The notes beneath the pieces are model-generated. The model made no database searches. It saw nothing but the letters and a program-made list of their open reading frames with translations, and had not been told where the DNA came from. From IMG/VR virus record IMGVR_UViG_2778261161_000002: 64,000 nucleotides of DNA; one strand, written 5' to 3'. A program made the position numbers and the translations under genes. This DNA is from a virus (lineage: Duplodnaviria; Heunggongvirae; Uroviricota; Caudoviricetes). This document shows positions 4,326 to 50,030 of the stretch, one piece after another. Each line of letters begins with the position of its first letter. The first letter of the stretch is position 1.

Positions 4326-5723
4326 TTGGAGTGTATTTTGAACAAATCAGTTACTTCTGCGCTTTCCGAGGCCGCAGATATTAACAGCGTCATTGCTCTG
4401 GTTTCTTCATTAGAGAGGAAAGAAACACACCTGGGGCGAAGTAGCTACGTAGTCACCAGCAAAGGTGCAGAGGTAAAGACGGCTTTTAAGGTCGTTGATG
4501 CCAGCAGTCTGATCATTTCGAACAACCTTGACGGTACGATTAACCCGGCCTTCCCGGAAGAACTCCAACCACGAGATCGTACCCGGCTATCCAGCAAACT
4601 CCAGGTTAACCGTATTGCCTCCAATTTACGCCCGGCACAATTAACGGATTCCGGTATGAGCAGCCACGGAGCGCCTATAGTTGGTCCGGACAACGTTGTT
4701 GAATCCGGCAACGGAAGGAGTATGGGTATCTGGCGTGCCTATGAGCAAGGACAGGCGGATGAGTATCGCCAGTACCTGATCGACCATGCGAAAGAGTTTG
4801 GTCTGAATCCTGACGAAATTTCGCAAATGTCTATGCCCGTACTGGTGCGAGAAAGACTCACAGATGTAGACCGCGCTCAATTTGCCCGCGATTCAAACAT
4901 TAGCGATCTGCAAGAGATGGCAGCAAGTGAAAAAGCGTATGCGGATGCGCAATTTCTCACTGAGAGCGTCATGGCGCTATTTAATCCTTCAGATGATGGA
5001 AATCTGCTGGCGCGGTCCAATGATGCGTTTATTCGTGCGTTTTTGCGCGAAATTGGCGATACAGCGACGGCAGGCTTGCTTACTGCCGATGGGCGTCCCA
5101 CGAAACAGCTTATCGATCGCATCCAGAATGCAATTTTTGCCAAAGCGTACAAGGATGAAAGGCTTGTTCGGCTGGTGTCGGAAGAGCCAGATCCGGAAAT
5201 GCGTAATATCCTGACCGCATTAAATACGGCAGCCAGCGATTTTGCGCAAATGCAGTCGCTGTCTGGCGACGCTCACCATGACGCAGTAACAGGCTTAGTG
5301 GACGGTATAGAGCAGGTTAATGGCCTGGATACACAGGCGATAGCAGCACTCCAGGAAGCAATTAATCTTGTACGTGAAGCCAAAGACAACGGTCAGGCCG
5401 TTGAAGAAGTGATCGCCCAAAGGGGGTTATTCGGCGACAGTACACCGGAAGCTGAGGCATTGGCGCTATTCATCGTAGCAAATAATCGCAGTGCGAAGCG
5501 TATGGGGGCAGCATTCAAAAAAATGGCGCAAAAAATCAACGACGAGCTGACTCATAAACAACAGGCATTGGGCGATATGTTCGGCGGTGGCGATGTTGAT
5601 CTGCGTCGTATTTTGTCTGCTGTATCTGATGAAATTGAGGGTGAATTTGGCGAAGGGAAAGGTCTGAACTTTGCTATGTTTGAAAATTCTACGGATCTAA
5701 ATAATTGCCGTACGGAAAACTAA
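4326..5723 (+). CDS. ParB/sulfiredoxin-like nuclease-domain protein, 465 aa
   Basis: N-terminal region ELQPRDRTRLSSKLQVNRIASNLRPAQL ... VVESGNGRSMGIWRAY resembles ParB N-terminal domain; non-ATG (TTG) start implied by ORF track. Confidence 0.45.
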   Translation: MECILNKSVTSALSEAADINSVIALVSSLERKETHLGRSSYVVTSKGAEVKTAFKVVDASSLIISNNLDGTINPAFPEELQPRDRTRLSSKLQVNRIASNLRPAQLTDSGMSSHGAPIVGPDNVVESGNGRSMGIWRAYEQGQADEYRQYLIDHAKEFGLNPDEISQMSMPVLVRERLTDVDRAQFARDSNISDLQEMAASEKAYADAQFLTESVMALFNPSDDGNLLARSNDAFIRAFLREIGDTATAGLLTADGRPTKQLIDRIQNAIFAKAYKDERLVRLVSEEPDPEMRNILTALNTAASDFAQMQSLSGDAHHDAVTGLVDGIEQVNGLDTQAIAALQEAINLVREAKDNGQAVEEVIAQRGLFGDSTPEAEALALFIVANNRSAKRMGAAFKKMAQKINDELTHKQQALGDMFGGGDVDLRRILSAVSDEIEGEFGEGKGLNFAMFENSTDLNNCRTEN

Positions 5724-5787
5724 ACCAACCGCTGAAATCACATACTGATTATGCTGCCGCAAAACTGGAAACGATTTGCGGTGATTC

Positions 5788-7470
5788 ATGGCAACGAAAG
5801 ACAAAAACAAAGGCTTTCTGTCAGCATTGAAGAAAGCCTTCAACGGTGGTGATGTTACGCCCGCCGATCCGGTCGTTTTTACGAGCGGACATAGTGTCGT
5901 TGCTCGTTCCGGCCTGTCTGCTTTACGTCCAGGCATCCTGGGGAGCAATAGCGATGGCATGACGAGTGAGGCAGATTCAATTTCTTTATCCGCTGAACTG
6001 CCCGGCGAGCGCCTGCAAAAGTACAACATCCTGGAAACGATGGCTAAAAGCCCGACTATCTCGACGGCTTTAAACATTCACATTGCACATGCGCTTGCGC
6101 CTTCAAAAAAAACCGGACAGGCATTCATCCTTTCGCCAAAGGATGGTTCCGATGCCGAGGCAGTAAGTAGATGTGAAGAGTTAACCGCTGATTTGGGGGC
6201 GATGATTAATGACGGACTTCCTTCATGGGCCATGATCATGGCGATCTTTGGGGTGTCTTATGTCCGACCTTATGCTGAACAGGGCAGGGGGATAACAGGC
6301 ATTGAGTCCAGTTATTACACTCTGCCACATTTCGTCCAGGAATTTTATCGCGGTAGCCAGCTGGTTGGATTCAGTGGTGATTACATCCTGGATACGCATA
6401 GTTTGCGCAGAGTAATAACCGAACCGTGGAATCTGGTTTCCATGAAAAATCCCTATTGGACGCCACAGCATAAAGTTATTCCGGTTAGCTACGGCACAAA
6501 AGGGTACTCACTGTTAAGTGAGCAGGCTGATAAGCCGTTAATGGAGACGCAGAATTACGGAACTTCATTCCTGGAATACAGCTATGAACCTTACCTTAAT
6601 TTATGTGCTTCGCTCGCCGCGCTGAAATCAACGCGAAATAATGCAGCCAAAATTGACCGCCTGATTGCTCTTACGACGAACACACTGGACCCGGTTAATG
6701 CGGCGAACTATACGCGTGGCGTCAGCCAGGCATTGAAGCGTCATAGTGACCTGGTGGCGCAAAGGTCGATTAATGCCAACGCTATTCCGACTGTGCTTAA
6801 CCATCTGATACCTGTTATGGGAGACGGGAAGAACGGCATCACCATTGATACGCAATCCATACCCGCAGATATCAGTGGTATCGAAGACGTTATGTTTCAC
6901 CTCCGGCAGCTTGCTGCAAGCCTCGGCATTGACGCAACAATGCTTGGCTGGGCTGATCAGATGAGCGGAGGGCTTGGAGAAGGCGGCTGGCAGCAAACTG
7001 CTATCCAGGCTGCATTGCGTGCGAACTGGATCAGACAGGCCGCCCAGCGAACTATTTATCGGCTTCTGGACATTCACCTCGCTTATAAATACGGCAAGGT
7101 TTACACCGAAACAAACCGCCCTTATGACGTGCAATTCAACTCAATGAACACTGCTATCCAGGAAGAGGAAAACCGGGAACTGGATGCACGCGCCAACTTT
7201 GTTGCTGTCATCTCCCAAATTATGGACCAGATCCAGAACAACCCGAAACTGGCTGGTAGTGACGCGTTTATGCGTTATCTGTTCACTGAGCAGTTGCACA
7301 TCGACGATGACACTCTCAACACCATGATCAAAGAGTTTAAGGCGAATGAATCAGAGCAAAACAACGAGCATGGTATGTACGAATCCGCGCCGTTGTCGTC
7401 CGGTGACGATCCGGAAAACTGGACGCCAGAACAGTTAATAAACTTTGCAAAATTTGTGATGAGCAATTAA
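5788..7470 (+). CDS. Hypothetical large protein, 560 aa (possible virion/morphogenesis-associated)
   Basis: ORF track; no motif I can name with certainty. Confidence 0.45.
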   Translation: MATKDKNKGFLSALKKAFNGGDVTPADPVVFTSGHSVVARSGLSALRPGILGSNSDGMTSEADSISLSAELPGERLQKYNILETMAKSPTISTALNIHIAHALAPSKKTGQAFILSPKDGSDAEAVSRCEELTADLGAMINDGLPSWAMIMAIFGVSYVRPYAEQGRGITGIESSYYTLPHFVQEFYRGSQLVGFSGDYILDTHSLRRVITEPWNLVSMKNPYWTPQHKVIPVSYGTKGYSLLSEQADKPLMETQNYGTSFLEYSYEPYLNLCASLAALKSTRNNAAKIDRLIALTTNTLDPVNAANYTRGVSQALKRHSDLVAQRSINANAIPTVLNHLIPVMGDGKNGITIDTQSIPADISGIEDVMFHLRQLAASLGIDATMLGWADQMSGGLGEGGWQQTAIQAALRANWIRQAAQRTIYRLLDIHLAYKYGKVYTETNRPYDVQFNSMNTAIQEEENRELDARANFVAVISQIMDQIQNNPKLAGSDAFMRYLFTEQLHIDDDTLNTMIKEFKANESEQNNEHGMYESAPLSSGDDPENWTPEQLINFAKFVMSN

Positions 7471-9645: not shown

Positions 9646-9699
9646 CCTGTGTGTCTACAAAGCATCCCAATGATCGGAAAATGCTCGCTCGATGATTTG

Positions 9700-9708: not shown

Positions 9709-9929
9709 ATTAATTTGCTGTTTCTAAATCGGAATGTATGATCTGCATCATCGACTGAAGTCATCCATTGCTGAAATTTTTAGTTGATCTTCCATGTTTT
9801 CAGGCTTATATTCATGCCGTCGTAGCAAATTCTGCGACCAGGTTTGACAGCCTGAATGTTAGTGCGGACAACCGCAGATTTCCGATATTGCGGTATTTTT
9901 GTGTCCGTAAACCGCGTTACGCCCGAATT

Positions 9930-10030
9930 ATGGTGGGGCGTGATGGGGAGGCTTCGGCCTGCTGGTCTCACTAACGCCAGTCTGTCAACCCTGTCACGTC
10001 CTGCCACCTGTTTGACAGCGGGTAGCAGGT
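9930..10030 (+). ncRNA. Candidate c4-like antisense RNA region of immI module 1
   Basis: Direct repeats GTTTGACAGC at 9842 and 10010 flank a complementary CTGTCAAC at 9982, upstream of icd-like ORF; architecture as in P1 c4. Confidence 0.3.
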
Positions 10031-20603: not shown

Positions 20604-20644
20604 TTTATTGCATCTTCCGATACCGTCATCAAACTAATAAAATA

Positions 20645-20653
20645 TGTTAGAAA
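20645..20653 (-). promoter_or_regulatory. Operator-like motif (copy 4)
   Basis: atatGTTAGAAAAct upstream of ORF 20668. Confidence 0.5.
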
Positions 20654-20667
20654 ACTAATTTAACAAA

Positions 20668-21795
20668 GTGACGGGAACAGCAATGAGTCAACACACTGAT
20701 ACTTCTAATCTGGAAATTATCTCGACAGCAATTGAAACGCTGCGCACACAAATCGCTCTTATACAGAAACGGAATCCGGGTGATGACCTGTCAAAGCGAC
20801 TGCACGAGAGTGTCATTGCCACTACAGATAACCTGGTGGCGGAAATCAACAAGCTGCTTGATGATGGGGCAGTTGATTACAATAAGCTGGTGGATCAGTT
20901 TGAGGAATACCAACAAGCTGTTAATGATGGCTTGATCCGTTTTTCACAAGTCACAGGCGTATCAGCGACAGTTGAAAGCCTGGGTGATGCAGTTAATCAA
21001 TTTGCCGCGAATATGCGTAATGAGATCGGCAATCTGGAAGCGCGTCTTGAACAGGCAAATACACTGCGTAAATCTGCCGAAGCCGATTTGAACCGTTACA
21101 AAAAAGACTATCCGCCCAGCCTGACAAAGCGGCTGGATGTTGCGGAGAAGGATAACCGCGCGCTGAAAAGAGAGCGCCGGGAACTAAAAGAGCGTTTAAC
21201 CAAGCTCAATCAGCAATGCATTGATTATCAAGGCGAAGGCGTCACACTGCGTAAAAAGTTAGCTACAGCGCAGAGCATTATCGAAACATTAAAGCGAGAG
21301 TGCTCACAGCTTGGTCACGATCTGAACCGTGCTTGTGGCATGGGACAAAGACCAGAGACATTTCCACTCATGTATGATGGGCGGGATGCCATTGCCTACA
21401 TCCATGAGTATCCGCACGGCCTGGTTGCGGAAACTGGGCAGCGTGGCGAAGCACTGCTGACGGCTAATTACCATCAACAAATCAGAACCAATCGCCTGTT
21501 AACGATGGATGTGATCCCATCGGTATGGGGAACGCCGCTTTACTATCGCCTGCCGGGCTTCGAAAAGGACTGGAATACCGACATAGACGAATGTCTCGCA
21601 GATAAAATTATGGCGTACCTGGAGACGGATTTTCCGCGCTTATATCGCCGGATTATGGACTCTAAGGATGCGCCAATCGATGAATTAAAAATGCGTCCGG
21701 AGACGCTGGAGGCAATCAAGCAGACGGAGTTTGATACTGTATTCAGTGTGGCCTGCATTCCAAGCTGTTTCCATGAAAGCATCCCGTTCATGTAA
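20668..21795 (+). CDS. Hypothetical coiled-coil protein, 375 aa
   Basis: ORF track. Confidence 0.5.
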   Translation: MTGTAMSQHTDTSNLEIISTAIETLRTQIALIQKRNPGDDLSKRLHESVIATTDNLVAEINKLLDDGAVDYNKLVDQFEEYQQAVNDGLIRFSQVTGVSATVESLGDAVNQFAANMRNEIGNLEARLEQANTLRKSAEADLNRYKKDYPPSLTKRLDVAEKDNRALKRERRELKERLTKLNQQCIDYQGEGVTLRKKLATAQSIIETLKRECSQLGHDLNRACGMGQRPETFPLMYDGRDAIAYIHEYPHGLVAETGQRGEALLTANYHQQIRTNRLLTMDVIPSVWGTPLYYRLPGFEKDWNTDIDECLADKIMAYLETDFPRLYRRIMDSKDAPIDELKMRPETLEAIKQTEFDTVFSVACIPSCFHESIPFM

Positions 21796-21893
21796 GGAGA
21801 TCGTCGTCAGGAAATCATTGACGCTTGCCGGGTATGGGCGAACGAATGGGATAAGAAGAATGGGGGGGTAGAAGATCTTTATGGGAAATAATG

Positions 21894-21902
21894 TGTTAGA
21901 AA
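21894..21902 (-). promoter_or_regulatory. Operator-like motif (copy 5)
   Basis: aatgTGTTAGAAAtcta. Confidence 0.45.
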
Positions 21903-22049
21903 TCTAAAATCACAATTCGAATGTATTGATTGTGAAGATAACTTAACATAGAATTTTCCTTGCTGGTGGGCGGTACCCACGTTTCGCTTGCTGGGCTTGA
22001 TAGTCACTTATTGGTTATTGTTCTCCCACCAGCATTTAACAAATTAAAG

Positions 22050-22058
22050 TGTTAGAAA
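22050..22058 (-). promoter_or_regulatory. Operator-like motif (copy 6)
   Basis: aagTGTTAGAAAAata. Confidence 0.45.
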
Positions 22059-23125
22059 AATATGGTAATACAAGAGCACGCTTTGGCACCGTGCAGGCCA
22101 AAGTTCAGCAGGTTTAGTGCGGAAAGTGGTTTCAGAGAGAGCACTTTGCGGAGTAAACGACAATACATGTTGAGCCACGGAAGGTCTTTTTAAGGTGTTC
22201 ATTGATGATGGTCCGGCAGAGAGTAACGGTACATGCTGTATCTAATCATCAATGCACATCTTCAACATTAAGGAGGCATAGGGATTTTTGTGGCGGTTAC
22301 CTTTTGCCCTGAGTCTCCTTAATGTTGCGGTAATGCACCTATGCGGATGTGGCCTTGCATTGTGTCTTGAAAGAATGGGGTAAGGCCGGGGATATCCCCA
22401 GGGGGAGGCACCCCCGCTGCAACGAACAGCCACAGACGGCAGTCGAGTGATGGAAACGTGTAAAGACTTTAAACCTCGTTACGGCTGGCGTGGCAAACGC
22501 GACAACCGAGACAGAGCGGTGACGGGCGGAGAGAGTGCCGCATCAAGAAAGAAGCCGACTTGTGATCCCTTTCTGCGGGCATTTGAAAGTGAATCCAGCT
22601 CAGGCAGTCGGCTTCTTTCTTGTGTGAGATGTAGCGTATTTGCCCATCTTCGGGTGGGCTTTTTTAGGGTTTTCGTCATGGTTAGCGACTTTGCGGCGGT
22701 TTAGAAACCGACCATTAAAGTAAATGCAAACGATGATCTGATGATGGTAGCGGCCTAAGAAGCCTGACGCCACGGGGTATGAGTCGTCCCCCGTCAAAAA
22801 ATCGACCGCAGAGTGTCCCCGTCTGTGTATTAGGGAACGGGGAGGCATAACAGGCAAGGGCGCTGGTGTGATTAACCAGATGAATGAGAAGGGTCAGGTC
22901 TTTCTGGTCAGCGCCCTTACCTGTTACGTCCCTCCAGCGTAACAGCCATTGCTTGATGGCACCCTGGGAGAATTTCTTGTAACGGGTAAATCCCGTCATG
23001 CTGAAGGCGCTAATCACGCTGGAAGCCAGGGTTATGCATCCCCTGTTACCGAATTGCAGCCAGGGCGCGATGCGCCGAAAAGCATACGGAGGTGGAAGCC
23101 CTCGCCGGAGACGTACCCGGCAAGT

Positions 23126-23202
23126 GATGGTGTAGCTCAGTAGGATAGAGCAGCAGCCTTCTAAGCTGTCGGTCGGTGGTTCGAATCCATCCACCATCGC
23201 CA
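23126..23202 (+). tRNA. tRNA-Arg (anticodon TCT, reads AGA)
   Basis: Manual fold: acceptor GATGGTG/CACCATC, D-arm GCTC..GAGC, anticodon loop CTTCTAA, T-arm GGTGG-TTCGAAT-CCATC, CCA encoded. Confidence 0.8.
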
Positions 23203-23204
23203 AT

Positions 23205-23279
23205 GCCGGTTTAGCTCAGTTGGTAGAGCGCCTGCCTTGTAAGCAGGATGTCAGCGGTTCGAGTCCGTTAACCGGCACC
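23205..23279 (+). tRNA. tRNA-Thr (anticodon TGT)
   Basis: Acceptor GCCGGTT/AACCGGC, anticodon loop CTTGTAA, T-loop TTCGAGT. Confidence 0.8.
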
Positions 23280-23734
23280 GACACAACAGGTAAGGGTATT
23301 TTGCGACGTCGGAGATCGCCGTGCTTGGCAGAGGGTTCGAATCCCTACGAAGTACCCTTACCGTTGTGATGAAGTGCAGCTCTTTGAAGCAACCAGAAGA
23401 TAAGCATCTGGCTTCACAACATAAACCGCATGAACGACCAATAAACGGTAGTCCGTATGGAGAACACCCCGTTGAGGAAGAGGCCTGGCCGGAACCGTAA
23501 CCGGCACTACAACGTTGAGAACACTGGCGTAACGGGGTCATATCCCAATCTATGAATAAATGTTGCGTTGCAGCGTGACAACCAGTGTTCTCAACATTGT
23601 GGTGAATGCGCAGGCTGATGCGCGAAAGACATTGCAGCTATTGCGGAAAAGAGCTGTTCGGCGGGGCAATTAAACGCCCGTGAGAGTCTGAAATAACCGC
23701 AAGCCGGAGATCAGCACCGGTCGCCACAATCAGC

Positions 23735-23821
23735 GGAGAGTAGGGGGCATGGTGCTCAAGCGGTCTTGAAAACCGTCCCATTGCGCAAGCGATGATGGTT
23801 CGATTCCATTACTCTCCGCCA
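23735..23821 (+). tRNA. Probable class II tRNA, anticodon TGA (Ser-like), long variable arm
   Basis: Acceptor GGAGAGT/ACTCTCC, anticodon arm GCGGT-CTTGAAA-ACCGT identical in loop to E. coli tRNA-Ser(UGA), T-arm GATGG-TTCGATT-CCATT, CCA; D-arm atypical. Confidence 0.55.
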
Positions 23822-24442
23822 TCGCAACGTTAAGAGTATTTGGCTAATTAAGCGAATGCCGGAAGCAGAACCGGATCATCAAATGCGTACAGGCGTCATC
23901 GCCGCCCAGCCAGCCAAGTGCTCTTACCATTGCGGTGAATGCGGCTAAGCGCACGCGGAACAGTTAAAACAATCCTCCTTAGTGGTTAAGTCAAACATCC
24001 CGGCGTTAATTGTTAACTGGTTAACGTCACCTGGAGGCACCAGGCACCGCAATCTAATAAAGTTTCAAGCAATGGGGTTTTTGTTGTCAGACTTCAGATA
24101 TAGATGGTTGTGGAAGGAGAGCCTGTACATAGTGCAGTTATTTCTTCCGCTATTTGTCTGCTTTGTCATGCTTCCTGAGCTGAAATACGCAATTTCAGAC
24201 ACTTTAAGCACTATCGTTACTTTTGTGTTTTATCTTTACTTTGATTACTTATTGAGCACTAAAATCAATGAATTATCCGAGGAAATGCAAGGTGGCTGTA
24301 AGTGATGGATTTTTGGGCGTTTGCCGATAAGAACCCTGGTTGGACATTTTTATTTTTGCTGGTGGTTGCATATGGGGTCGAGCAAGCGGCTAAAGCCTTA
24401 CGCGGTTCTGGCAAAAAGCGTAAGCGGAATTAACAGTAATCT

Positions 24443-24518
24443 GGCCCTTTAGCTCAGTGGTTAGAGCAGGCGACTCATAATCGCACGGTCACCGGTTCAA
24501 ATCCGGTAGGGGCCACCA
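24443..24518 (+). tRNA. tRNA-Ile2-like (anticodon CAT, AUA decoder) or tRNA-Met
   Basis: GGCCCTTTAGCTCAGTGGTTAGAGCAGGCGACTCATAATCGC... near-identical to E. coli ileX from memory; T-arm ACCGG-TTCAAAT-CCGGT; CCA. Confidence 0.8.
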
Positions 24519-24972
24519 TATTTGGTTGTAACACGGCGTATGGCACATGCGTCGTTAGCGGTCTGGTGTAGCTGTTAGGTACCTTACTAACACTGCATGG
24601 GCACATCAGGTAGCCGGAATGTGCAAGTCACCGCTGGAGGGATAGCGGACTCAGGGACTCACCATCCTGGCGATTCGGTGTGACAGCCGGAATAGCACGG
24701 CGCACAACAGGAAAAGGCGTTTAATTAACGCGAGCGCCGTTTCCGTTGTGGTAATTGCGGCTATGCGCTCGTGACGAAGCCATTTTCATTCACTACGTTC
24801 TGATAAGTGACGTCGCCGGGAGTGGCTAACCTGGCAGGTGGAGGCACCACCGCCACAACTCCTCTCAATTCATCATATAGCCGCTCAGGCTGTACCTCTT
24901 AATTAATACGAAGTTACGACATCACTACCGGTACTTCCGGGGGATAGTCGCGCGTGTAAAAAAGGAGACGTT

Positions 24973-49251: not shown

Positions 49252-49879
49252 TTTTAAGTTGAATTGTAAATTTCTCCGATGTACATTCACTACCGATTGG
49301 CACACCGGTCAACTTTTTGAGACAAACTGTTTAGTTTTTCGTATTATTGCCCCCGCCATACCTATGGCGGTGCAATATAGGTGGCTGAAAAGCCCCCGTT
49401 GACTCACGGTGTTCCAGCCTTTATTGCGCCGCCACCAGACCGTGGAACAGTCGATGGCGGCTCCGAAAGCAAGGAGTCACTACACTATGAACAACTACAG
49501 TCTTTTCCCATCACTCGTCGTCCACCACTCACGCGATAATCTGCATTCTTTATTCGCGCTGGGGGAGTCAAAATGACTGTTCGCTACCTCAACTTTCAAA
49601 TCAAGAACATTACTGGCGGTTGCTATGACTGGTTTGTCACTCTCGGAAAAGAAGTGATTACCGGGAAGCTGGATGAAGTGAAAGCTAAAGCAATGGCCTA
49701 CGCCTGCAAGCAAGCCCGGAAGAAATCCGCCAAAGCATAAAATACTGACTGTTGCGCCCTGGCATTATCGTGGGGTATATTTCTACGGCACCTTAGAAAA
49801 ACGGGTGCCGGGATTGGAACCCCGGATAATGCAAAAGGCGACACAGACGCCGAAAGCGTCTTTTCTTGTGTCATGCCAT

Positions 49880-50030
49880 CGCACAGCCATACGTAGCGTT
49901 TAGCTCAGAGATCAATGGTAGTGCTGGCTGGGCTGCCGAAAGGCAGGCCGGTTCCCTTTTGCGCCGGTAGTTCCAACCCAGTCAGTGCTACCGCCATTGA
50001 GATTGGAACCTCACGCGGTAGCTCCTTAAA
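49880..50030 (+). ncRNA. Candidate c4-like antisense RNA region of immI module 2
   Basis: GATTGGAACC at 49812 and 50001 with partially complementary GTTCCAACC at 49970; tRNA-like TAGCTCAG segment. Confidence 0.3.

Follow-up and report, generated by a model that had tools for sequence, protein, structure and literature searches.

A phage-borne, tmRNA-related RNA module with a predicted antisense arm against host tmRNA in the tRNA operon leader of a D6-like relative of phage P1

Introduction

[quoted passage not shown] A different arrangement is found in the permuted tmRNAs of alpha- and betaproteobacteria and cyanobacteria (RF04321, RF01849-51), which function as two base-paired pieces (PMC11915505), both derived from one gene, paired via the acceptor stem and P2, and cut by tRNA-processing enzymes. 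Phages also encode tmRNA-related RNAs: a virus survey from 2014 recorded mycobacteriophages, Bacillus phage G and DS6A, the last with a TLD only (PMC4131195), and a survey from 2025 listed 79 phage sequences (PMC11915505), a TLD being required in both. The RNA of mycobacteriophage DS6A, thought to titrate SmpB, has been reported to inhibit the host tmRNA (PMC4131195), and anti-tmRNA oligonucleotides suppress release from stalled ribosomes in vitro (PMC3384345). The element described here is a 177-nt module (positions 22667-22843) in a 64,000-nt stretch of DNA, hereafter the window, which belongs to a D6-like relative of phage P1 (IMG/VR record IMGVR_UViG_2778261161_000002). Like the RNAs of DS6A, the cluster C mycobacteriophages and Bacillus phage G (PMC4131195, PMC11915505), the module is phage-encoded and related to tmRNA; whereas the DS6A RNA is a TLD without a message, the module holds the opposite half, a message without a TLD, and would act by RNA-RNA pairing.

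The module lies in a 1.3-kb region (21796-23125) that matches Escherichia phage D6 from end to end at 98.4% identity and in which nothing is annotated in D6, P1 or RefSeq E. coli plasmid records. An original prediction, made from the letters of the window, had read this region as non-coding and as either a regulated small RNA or the leader of the tRNA operon. The region is best read as a repressor-controlled leader of the tRNA operon built as an array of separate structured-RNA cassettes. The proposed leader under operator control fits its context, the position of Pban and Op72 in P1, but it is not a passive one, and the 465 nt 3' of the terminator, which would have passed as featureless leader, hold the only segment conserved across phage families, namely the module. 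From its sequence we estimate a probability of roughly one half that the module RNA acts on the host tmRNA by pairing and so blocks or redirects tagging. Because it has neither a TLD nor a pseudoknot 1 (PK1), the module falls outside the tmRNA family, and it appears to be a new kind of tmRNA-related element that would work at least like an antisense RNA.

A tmRNA-type message

The message of the module shares with tmRNA a GCA resume codon behind an A-rich linker and a 10-codon tag of the gammaproteobacterial AND...AA/VA type (Table 1). Among the matches listed, the frame is in each of the 127 instances exactly 10 codons long before its stop, and together they encode 18 different peptides of the pattern A-N-[DE]-x(4)-[MAVI]-[AV]-A, one of them ending in P; examples are ANDDVVLMAA, ANEEMYLAVA, ANDEQFLAVA and ANDNEFKVAA, to be set beside the E. 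coli host tag ANDENYALAA. Variation by codon position falls in the order 3 > 1 > 2, which is coding-like, and the segments flanking the frame have many indels. Linker and tag align in sense and without gaps with nt 80-122 of E. coli ssrA (blastn). Ahead of the frame, 46 of 48 distinct sequences have T at position -5 (positions -4 to -1 being fixed by the search pattern), the counterpart of U85 in E. coli tmRNA, where U85 is conserved, A86 is essential, and the native linker of 11 nt has an A-run that tolerates changes of sequence and length (PMC2481249). The module therefore has what the message of a tmRNA has: a frame set by a resume codon, a hydrophobic, alanine-rich C-terminus, and nucleotides of the U85/A86 type in front. 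Tags that end in hydrophobic-Ala-Ala or in LVA are strong ClpXP degrons (bioRxiv 10.1101/2024.01.29.576913), and the phage tags, ending in hydrophobic-Ala-Ala or Ala-Val-Ala, resemble them by analogy.

The likeness extends to the structure that follows, for in the module as in tmRNA the stop codon lies in a hairpin loop and is succeeded by a helix and an H-type pseudoknot 3' of the stop. Four helices were tested for covariation in an alignment of 40 diverse modules, with partner-slid and shuffled controls: 94.9% of the cells are paired, sliding the partners lowers this to 31-52%, and none of 500 shuffles was as good. Compensatory changes occur in 11 of the 18 pairs, including all four of the pseudoknot, and the stem of the tag hairpin varies among CTGG/CCAG, CTGA/TCAG and TGAT/ATCA. 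In the closing helix Pc 97.5% of the cells are paired, the only changes being U-A to U-G and G-C to G-U; since such G-U pairs fix the transcribed strand, the RNA is assigned to the plus strand. The terminal hairpin H6 was left out of the formal count because the alignment register shifts there, and it combines a conserved 14-nt loop with at least four different stems (GCCC/GGGC, GCCCTGA/TCAGGGC, GACGGGAG/CTCCCGTC and TCCCCGT/ACGGGGA).

Table 1. Features of the 1.3-kb region and its downstream boundary, in order of position in the window
Feature	Position	Strand	Remarks
Operator-like motif O1, AATGTGTTAGAAA	21890-21902	+	D6-type counterpart of the P1 C1 operator (putative); kept in the diverged relative L038 while its flanks diverge
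Candidate sigma-70 promoter, TTGATT - 17 nt - TAGAAT	21926-21954	+	Only promoter-like site in 21500-24700; assignment inferred
5' stem, TGCTGGTGGG / CCCACCAGCA	21961-21970 / 22025-22034	+	10-bp perfect inverted repeat enclosing 54 nt, between promoter and O2
Operator-like motif O2, AAAGTGTTAGAAA	22046-22058	+	Member of the 12-copy motif; kept in the diverged relative L038
Two adjacent hairpins	22189-22209/22245-22265; 22263-22283/22307-22327	+	Inverted repeats; the second is similar to the 'spacer hairpins' seen in phage tRNA arrays
Long hairpin	22544-22560/22606-22622	+	Perfect 17-bp inverted repeat, 45-nt loop; 3' end of the D6-specific block 22245-22622
Intrinsic terminator, GCCCATC-TTCG-GGTGGGC	22642-22659, T6 22660-22665	+	7-bp stem (5 G-C), UUCG loop
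Antisense arm, 47 nt	22667-22713	+	Complementary to host tmRNA nt 56-106
Closing helix Pc	22692-22695/22807-22810	+	RNAalifold; in the minimum free energy fold; extendable in the window to 22689-22691/22811-22813
A-rich linker, ATTAAAGTAAAT, 12 nt	22714-22725	+	U at -5 and A at -4 of the resume codon, as tmRNA U85 and A86
tmRNA-type tag frame, GCA AAC GAT GAT CTG ATG ATG GTA GCG GCC TAA	22726-22758	+	ANDDLMMVAA*, read from the sequence
Tag hairpin	22745-22748/22769-22772, inner 22752-22754/22762-22764	+	Stop codon in the loop; 4 of 5 pairs changed on both sides
Helix H5	22773-22777/22789-22793	+	3 of 5 pairs with compensatory changes
H-type pseudoknot	H5 loop 22783-22786 with 22803-22806	+	4 of 4 pairs with compensatory changes
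Terminal hairpin H6	22816-22822/22837-22843	+	Loop CTGTGTATTAGGGA in the window, GGTGTGATTAATAA in most phages
Spacer hairpin, ..ACAACAGGTAAGRGC..X..GCYCTTACCTGTT..	22839-22865/22909-22935	+	27-nt arms, 81% complementary; fold z = -3.3
P1/D6-specific structured spacer	22936-23125	+	About 90% identical to P1; reaches the tRNA
tRNA-Arg(TCT)	23126-23202	+	First gene of the tRNA cluster; downstream boundary

Complementarity to the host tmRNA

In its 5' third the module reads as host tmRNA in reverse complement, and the target of this arm comprises the 3' strand of PK1, the A-rich linker, the -1 triplet, the resume codon and codons 1-5. In a plus/minus blastn alignment with ssrA of E. coli K-12 the arm of the window matches at 36/51 positions; for other module types the matches range from 32/41 to 40/51. 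The pairing falls into blocks: (A)GUUUUCGU with ACGAAAACU in codons 3-5, CGUUAGCGAC with GUCGCAAACG in the -1 triplet, resume codon and codon 2, UUUGCGG with CCGCAAA, and, in the 3' strand of PK1, CUUUUUA with UAAAAAG. The duplex predicted between the window arm and ssrA uses the full arm at -48 kcal/mol, and in 39 of 41 module types the best duplex engages the whole arm at tmRNA nt 56-106/107, with z-scores against mononucleotide shuffles of -3 to -8 in most types and weaker values in a few. Over 87 distinct arms the mean is 38 base pairs with tmRNA nt 57-106, nt 82-86 (AAAUA, with U85 and A86) always remaining unpaired. An alignment score with an empirical background was adopted because the duplex energy alone is not specific; by this measure the window arm, at 18, ranks first of 31,978 windows taken from both strands of the 64-kb window (mean 8.5, sd 1.4), and the arms of other module types score up to 22 (the type with 40/51). 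Extended and conserved complementarity to a defined target encoded elsewhere, as found here, is what characterizes a trans-acting antisense RNA.

That the arm matches the host sequence and not the module's own message follows from the host-specific nucleotides that it covers: the complementarity reaches PK1, the host -1 triplet GUC and the codons GAC GAA AAC, none of which the module's message has. The mean energy of the arm against host tmRNA is -42 kcal/mol, against -19 with its own message, the host being the better partner in all 41 types. The module's own message was accordingly rejected as the main partner of the arm, a closing helix of 4-8 base pairs being present all the same. Also discarded was a sense tag frame on the opposite strand of the arm: its linker indels are not multiples of three, it has no conserved frame, and the G-U pairs give the plus strand.

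Among 30 natural enterobacterial ssrA variants, taken from prophage contigs in IMG/VR, the paired blocks are near-invariant and the A-run, which varies in length, lies in an unpaired bulge; the conserved segments of the arm coincide with the paired, invariant segments of tmRNA. Two isolates have the element as well as ssrA, and in each the arm matches the tmRNA of the same isolate, a comparison that does not discriminate, both hosts being of the common ANDENYALAA type; the tags of the elements in these isolates are ANDDLMLMAA or ANDDLMMVAA. More telling hosts would be those with a divergent ssrA, which we take to be Erwinia, Serratia, Aeromonas and the Yersinia-type tmRNA with the tag ANDSQYESAALAA.

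A synthetic parallel exists in the anti-ssrA oligonucleotides of the laboratory, the classic one of which presumably contains GTTTTCGTCGTTTGCGAC and so is nearly identical to GTTTTCGTC..GTTAGCGAC of the arm. These oligonucleotides, used in ribosome display and cell-free translation, are directed at the same start of the tag template in E. coli tmRNA and keep tmRNA from acting on stalled ribosomes (PMC3384345); they differ from the module in being synthetic DNA and purely inhibitory, with neither a replacement template nor a structured 3' domain.

Absence of a tRNA-like domain

ARAGORN, applied to the window, P1, D6 and 99 extended loci, found no tmRNA, permuted forms included, and RF00023 gave no match to the module even at E <= 10. 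When the whole window was searched with Rfam at gathering threshold and sub-regions at E <= 10, the 1.3-kb region yielded only sub-threshold tmRNA models, confined to the tag region and to the permuted forms (tmRNA_permuted, 24.1 bits against a gathering threshold of 47; beta_tmRNA, 13-14 against 84; alpha_tmRNA, 12 against 50), and Rfam 15 has no family for the module. The module has no acceptor stem, G3:U70 pair, T-arm or CCA, and in place of a PK1 directly 5' of the linker stands the 47-nt reverse complement of the host PK1-3'/resume region, for which only a small hairpin and the closing helix are predicted in the free RNA. It has a single pseudoknot, is about half the length of tmRNA, and occurs in phages, being nearly absent from bacterial chromosomes. 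Having no TLD, it is not a tmRNA.

These results bear on the idea of a self-sufficient two-piece tmRNA of the phage, in which the module would be the coding piece and a phage tRNA-like acceptor piece, such as the segment 23285-23368 or a neighbouring tRNA, would complete it. Natural permuted tmRNAs offer a precedent (PMC11915505), they are the only models to which the module gives any Rfam signal, and T-arm-like sequences and tRNAs are often close by, a tRNA-Ala-like gene lying 120 nt upstream in the G7C-like phage Bp4. Against this, besides the ARAGORN results, 30 of 100 loci have no T-arm-like motif within -500/+800 nt, and in the rest the position of such motifs is not fixed; the 5' end, GUUUUCG, does not provide an acceptor strand with G3:U70, and no complementary partner bearing CCA was seen; upstream of the module, where a permuted tmRNA would have its acceptor piece, there is a terminator or another hairpin; and the arm pairs with host tmRNA instead of a phage segment. 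An acceptor stem could not be assembled by hand from GUUUUCG, from the sequence after H6 or from that before the tRNA, and a complete or permuted tmRNA was rejected on the ARAGORN null result and the want of a fixed T-arm partner. We regard a two-piece tmRNA made by the phage itself as very improbable. The reading preferred here, pairing with host tmRNA, keeps one element of it, a message base-paired to a molecule with a TLD, and differs in that the partner would be the complete host tmRNA and the joint a duplex of about 40 base pairs over the PK1/resume region.

Two neighbouring sequences may be recorded in this connection. In Bp4 (locus L004) the module lies between the tRNA-Ala(CGC)-like gene (1310-1381) and a 'tRNA-Cys(ACA)' (1673-1751), which has a displaced anticodon and begins 12 nt downstream of the module, an arrangement that bears on the two-piece hypothesis. 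In the window, a unit at 23285-23368, directly after tRNA-Thr, consists of a spacer hairpin (GGTAAGGGTATT ... AGTACCCTTACC) around a degenerate tRNA-like core with the T-arm AGAGGGTTCGAATCCCTAC, has no CCA and no ARAGORN or Rfam match, and has equivalents that adjoin the module in other phages (for example at loci L012, L030 and L067).

Distribution among phages

A blastn search of phage genomes with positions 22630-23125 returned 200 records, about 180 of which are not P1-like and belong to unrelated groups. Carriers are found in Punavirus (P1), D6, the Ackermannviridae (PhiSH19, Ag3, Menlow, phiEa2809), the Schitoviridae (N4-like, G7C group; Bp4, ECBP1), and the Drexlerviridae and related siphoviruses of about 47 kb (CS01, ESP2949-1, Klebsiella phages). 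The records that are not P1-like align with window positions 22668-22861 alone, in unannotated DNA that is often near tRNA genes, and in all cases the module has the orientation of the neighbouring genes and tRNAs. A pattern scan of IMG/VR gave at least 120 matches; the same pattern applied to bacterial genomes gave seven in 185,579 species, one genome each, on contigs that look like phage, plasmid or contaminant sequence. With so few bacterial matches, the module is taken to be phage-borne and distinct from bacterial ssrA. Full-text literature searches and the papers of the tmRNA databases contain no description of a message-only, tmRNA-antisense phage RNA, and papers on the P1 transcriptome, which treat annotated genes only, do not mention the module.

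Within the P1-like elements the conserved stretch is longer, the final 487 nt of the region (22639-23125) being about 91% identical to P1 (68855-69347, downstream of Pban/Op72), P7, SJ46, RCS47 and further P1-like phages. A rival reading takes the module for a relic, a captured and partly inverted piece of enterobacterial ssrA that travels with the spacer hairpins, serves as a spacer or processing signal in tRNA operons and has an arm and tag with no function. The region is a mosaic whose cassettes have been shuffled among P1, D6 and variant plasmids, conserved spacer hairpins and tRNAs commonly adjoin the module on its flanks, and much of the conservation among P1-like elements could reflect recent exchange. 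A relic would not, however, keep its frame, its compensatory changes and a host-matching arm over at least four families in surroundings that cannot be aligned, and the parts of the module that do vary are exactly those that do not pair with tmRNA. A functionless relic is therefore judged quite improbable.

How the module RNA might act

If the module RNA acts on host tmRNA, the 47-nt arm would anneal to the single-stranded start of the tmRNA message, invade and open PK1, and cover the resume codon of the host together with tag codons 1-5, so that the host tag template would be shut off. A further series of steps would turn this block into a tag swap. The phage RNA would leave the duplex beside tmRNA nt 56, with its own resume codon 12 nt further on in a tmRNA-like context; the duplex would stand in for PK1; and the ribosome, having taken the alanyl-tRNA-like domain of the host with SmpB, would resume on the phage template. 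Stalled proteins would then gain the phage tag, such as ANDDLMMVAA, in place of the host tag during infection or lysogeny, and the product would be an intermolecular two-piece tmRNA to which the host contributes the TLD and SmpB and the phage the message. Resumption on the phage template is suggested by the linker context, U(-5)/A(-4), together with the strictly conserved 10-codon frame, and the existence of natural two-piece tmRNAs implies that a message need not be continuous with the TLD. The full tag swap, in which the phage RNA docks on tmRNA, its duplex replaces PK1 and its own message is fed to rescued ribosomes, is put forward tentatively, as possible rather than probable, the use of the phage template being its most speculative step. 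Its purpose might be an altered choice of adaptor or protease, or escape from a host response.

The same pairing could serve inhibition and nothing else. A pure antisense RNA would sequester tmRNA or direct its cleavage, shutting off tagging and rescue during phage growth, and its tag would never be translated; the tag-like frame would then be kept for reasons of RNA, such as mimicry of the message region for binding S1, SmpB or RNase R, or structural spacing. A duplex of about 40 base pairs is a substrate for RNase III, nearly all module types are complementary to tmRNA nt 56-106, there is no TLD, anti-tmRNA oligonucleotides work in vitro, and the TLD-only RNA of DS6A is a precedent for inhibition of tmRNA by a phage (PMC4131195). 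What this account leaves unexplained is the message itself: the constant frame of 10 codons and a stop amid indel-rich neighbours in all instances listed, the 18 peptides that all start with A-N-[DE] and nearly all end in [AV]-A, the variation by codon position, the tmRNA-like U(-5)/A(-4) and the length of the linker. A purely inhibitory RNA seems rather unlikely.

Several observations weigh against an action of the module on host tmRNA, and some of them against the tag swap in particular. The window arm exceeds the next-best random window by a single point (18 against 17), and the duplex energy does not discriminate, other 47-nt windows of the region reaching -46 to -48 kcal/mol against ssrA. 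The arm of an Erwinia phage fits E. coli ssrA poorly (z = -1.4). The pattern with which the modules were collected dictated some of the arm (TAGAAAC..ACCA) and the tag's first 8 nt, and the module types are homologous and so are not independent replicates. In the free RNA, Pc ties up part of the arm. In P1 and D6 a canonical terminator stands 2 nt upstream of the module, which would therefore need read-through or processing to be made. Expression and processing of the RNA, its annealing in vivo and the block of the host template are all deduced from sequence. We know of no case in which a ribosome resumes on a template whose only bond to tmRNA is an intermolecular duplex, and, as the phage tags are still degron-like, a tag swap would bring no evident gain.

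The upstream cassettes and their control

In the P1 counterpart of this locus the C1-controlled promoters P1ban/P2ban (Pban), with the operator Op72, precede an annotated 'dicF-like region', tRNA-Asn and tRNA-Thr. The leader of the P1 ban operon and that of the window thus have the same genomic role, both being under repressor-operator control, and share the sequence from the terminator to the tRNAs. They differ in the 5' gene (dmt in P1, the pmgS-like gene at 20668-21795 in the window), in the type of operator (TGTTAGAAA in the window, ATTGCTCTAATAAATTT in P1), in a D6-specific block of about 600 nt in the window that takes the place of the dicF-like body of P1, and in the first tRNA, described below.

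The two operator-like motifs that the original prediction had noticed at 21894 and 22050 are real. The pattern AWWRTGTTAGAAA, with at most one mismatch, has 12 copies in the window against 0.86 expected, a number reached by none of 100 shuffles; bivalent inverted pairs occur at 9696, 25962, 44009, 48581 and 61082, and further copies precede the c4 RNA, the Lpa gene (PF25716) and the RdgC/hrdC gene (PF04381). In P1, C1 operators stand at the corresponding places, namely Op51 (c4), Op88 (Lpa), Op68 (RdgC/hrdC) and Op72 (the tRNA leader). A repeated asymmetric motif with single and inverted double sites ahead of immunity and early functions is typical of P1-type operators. The motif, (A/T)(A/T)TRTGTTAGAAAAYTAA, does not match the P1 operator consensus ATTGCTCTAATAAATTT, with which it shares about 10 of 17 positions when compared by eye, and because of this difference the sites are called D6-type; they are putative variants of the P1-type C1 operators, to which a C1 repressor may bind. 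The promoter hexamers are TTGATT / TAAAAT in L038, in surroundings only about 65-70% identical, and the arms of the 5' stem are unchanged in five diverged sequences, its interior being variable.

The motif also occurs at 20641-20653, about 15 nt upstream of the start (20668) of the pmgS-like head-morphogenesis open reading frame (ORF). P1 is not known to have a C1 operator at this place. The window contains two genes for C4 antisense RNA, at 9806-10011 and 49788-49998 (76.7 and 66.3 bits), each downstream of operator-motif copies; one comes with a1/b1 targets and the other adjoins an isrK-like RNA (59.4 bits). The element may thus have two immI-type immunity regions.

Homologues of the first 843 nt, counted from position 21796, are confined to D6-like plasmids. 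The D6-specific block is present in 99 of 5426 complete E. coli genomes, plasmid-borne every time and annotated in none, and has no similarity to E. coli chromosomes. The hairpin reported earlier with a 12-bp stem (22551/22604) proved stronger than described, since it is the core of the perfect 17-bp stem, and the terminator-like hairpin with a T-run (22634..22664) is a canonical intrinsic terminator. The fold of 22530-22668 has -52.2 kcal/mol (z = -3.3; none of 200 shuffles equal). A comparison of homologous regions, which had been proposed as a check, gave compensatory changes in two hairpins of the plasmids L137 and L138: in the long hairpin two pairs are changed on both sides (A:T to T:A and G:C to A:T) and one pair is lost, and in the hairpin at 22263-22327 CAACATT..AATGTTG has become CAACGTT..AACGTTG and GGG/CCC has become GAG/CTC. 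The terminator is kept in P1, D6 and variant plasmids, and in P1 it closes the 'dicF-like region', the body of which is missing from the window in the P1/window alignment. Some plasmids hold the D6 block with its long hairpin, then the P1 dicF-like block, then the shared terminator; since both can stand in series, the D6 and P1 blocks are seen as exchangeable units. In other phages the place of the terminator, directly before (A)GTTTTCG, is taken by a different strong hairpin with no long U-run, which may double as a 5' structure or processing site. A cut between AG and UUUU at the module start would fit what we take to be the preference of RNase E (RN before WUU).

A regulated small RNA consisting of the long hairpin and terminator, as originally suggested, is possible in itself. 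A stronger version holds that such an RNA (22530-22665), made from the operator-controlled promoter, is the functional unit and the D6 counterpart of the 'dicF-like' RNA of P1, the rest being passive leader. Hairpin and terminator are real, thermodynamically strong and partly backed by compensatory changes, and the dicF-like RNA annotated in P1 has this terminator as its end. Rfam has no match for this block, however, and the DicF covariance model finds none in the window (E <= 10) or in P1 3780-4230 (E <= 5); there is no homologue outside D6-like plasmids and no chromosomal similarity; and the one element conserved across families, which lies downstream of the terminator, would be left unexplained. 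As a replacement for an action of the module on host tmRNA this small RNA is unlikely, but the two are compatible and it may be an additional feature.

Absence of protein genes

The absence of any convincing protein-coding ORF was borne out. The longest ORFs of the region have 85 amino acids (aa) on the plus strand and 162 aa on the minus strand, the latter extending into the tRNA, and seven ORFs scanned against Pfam and PHROGs gave no Pfam match. The sole PHROG match is that of the minus-strand ORF to phrog_27020, a 68-aa profile of unknown function (22796-22999; E = 7e-48). This ORF overlies the 3' part of the module and the spacer hairpin, where indels of 2, 3, 1 and 4 nt separate P1 from the window. 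A protein-coding reading was rejected, as this ORF overlaps the tRNA and these indels between P1 and the window disrupt its frame; a conserved protein in an alternative frame, which would have told against an RNA function, was likewise sought on both strands and no credible one appeared. Because these indels shift the frame, phrog_27020 is most likely a family of ORFs over-called on conserved RNA-coding DNA.

The spacer hairpins and the tRNA cluster

Downstream of the module the region ends with a spacer hairpin and a structured spacer. The hairpin (22839-22935) shows a change from C:G to T:A between P1 and the window, and belongs to a family with the stem ..ACAACAGGTAAGRGCATT / AGTGCYCTTACCGTTGT.. 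and a variable insert of 40-90 nt that punctuates tRNA and module arrays in unrelated enterobacterial phages. Further examples are 23285-23368 in the window and hairpins at loci L009, L011, L013, L015, L028 and L036; the family is not in Rfam, and its members may be processing signals, for instance for RNase III. The spacer at 22936-23125 had no homologue outside P1-like elements in the phage blastn search. Together with the hairpin that precedes it, it is present in 561 of 5426 E. coli genomes and annotated in none; the search gave ten chromosomal places.

The tRNA-Arg(TCT) that bounds the region is followed by tRNA-Thr, tRNA-Ser and a CAU tRNA. The first tRNA is Asn(GTT) in P1 (L001, 4494-4569) and D6 (L002, 5331-5406); its acceptor stem and T-arm are identical to those of the Arg(TCT) gene of the window. 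The differences are confined to the D and anticodon arms, which suggests that the anticodon arm was swapped within a single tRNA scaffold. Other relatives have the sets Arg+Tyr+Thr or Asn+Tyr+Thr. In the D6 record (NC_050154, L002) three tRNAs at 5331-6036 are annotated opposite to the ARAGORN strand and to the flanking genes, which looks like an annotation error. The tRNA-Ser(TGA) of the window (23734-23821, ARAGORN) scores 45.2 bits against the tRNA-Sec model (threshold 47) and has no match to the ordinary tRNA model at gathering threshold, and tRNAscan-SE assigned no amino acid to its counterpart in the D6 record. Between tRNA-Ser and the next ORF, positions 23931-24051 give a sub-threshold match to the enterobacterial small RNA STnc100 (39.4 bits, threshold 47; E = 2e-6).

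Implications

Whatever its mechanism, the module is missed by annotation pipelines, and ORFs over-called on it seem to make up at least one PHROG family. If the module RNA does act on host tmRNA, phages would interfere with trans-translation by RNA-RNA pairing, a route that has not been described, and the laboratory anti-ssrA oligonucleotides would have a natural counterpart. The standard, permuted and intron forms would be joined by a fourth tmRNA-related form of RNA, and a compact natural tool for switching degradation tags would be at hand. Were the tag swap also true, this would be the first parasite known to re-template the host tmRNA. The question of why some phages depend on ssrA or are sensitive to it becomes testable in these terms. 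A function would be given to a part of the classic phage P1 that is conserved, has never been annotated and is carried on plasmids of about 10% of complete E. coli genomes, and this function would extend to phages of the therapeutic type (Kuttervirus, Gamaleyavirus, Drexlerviridae).

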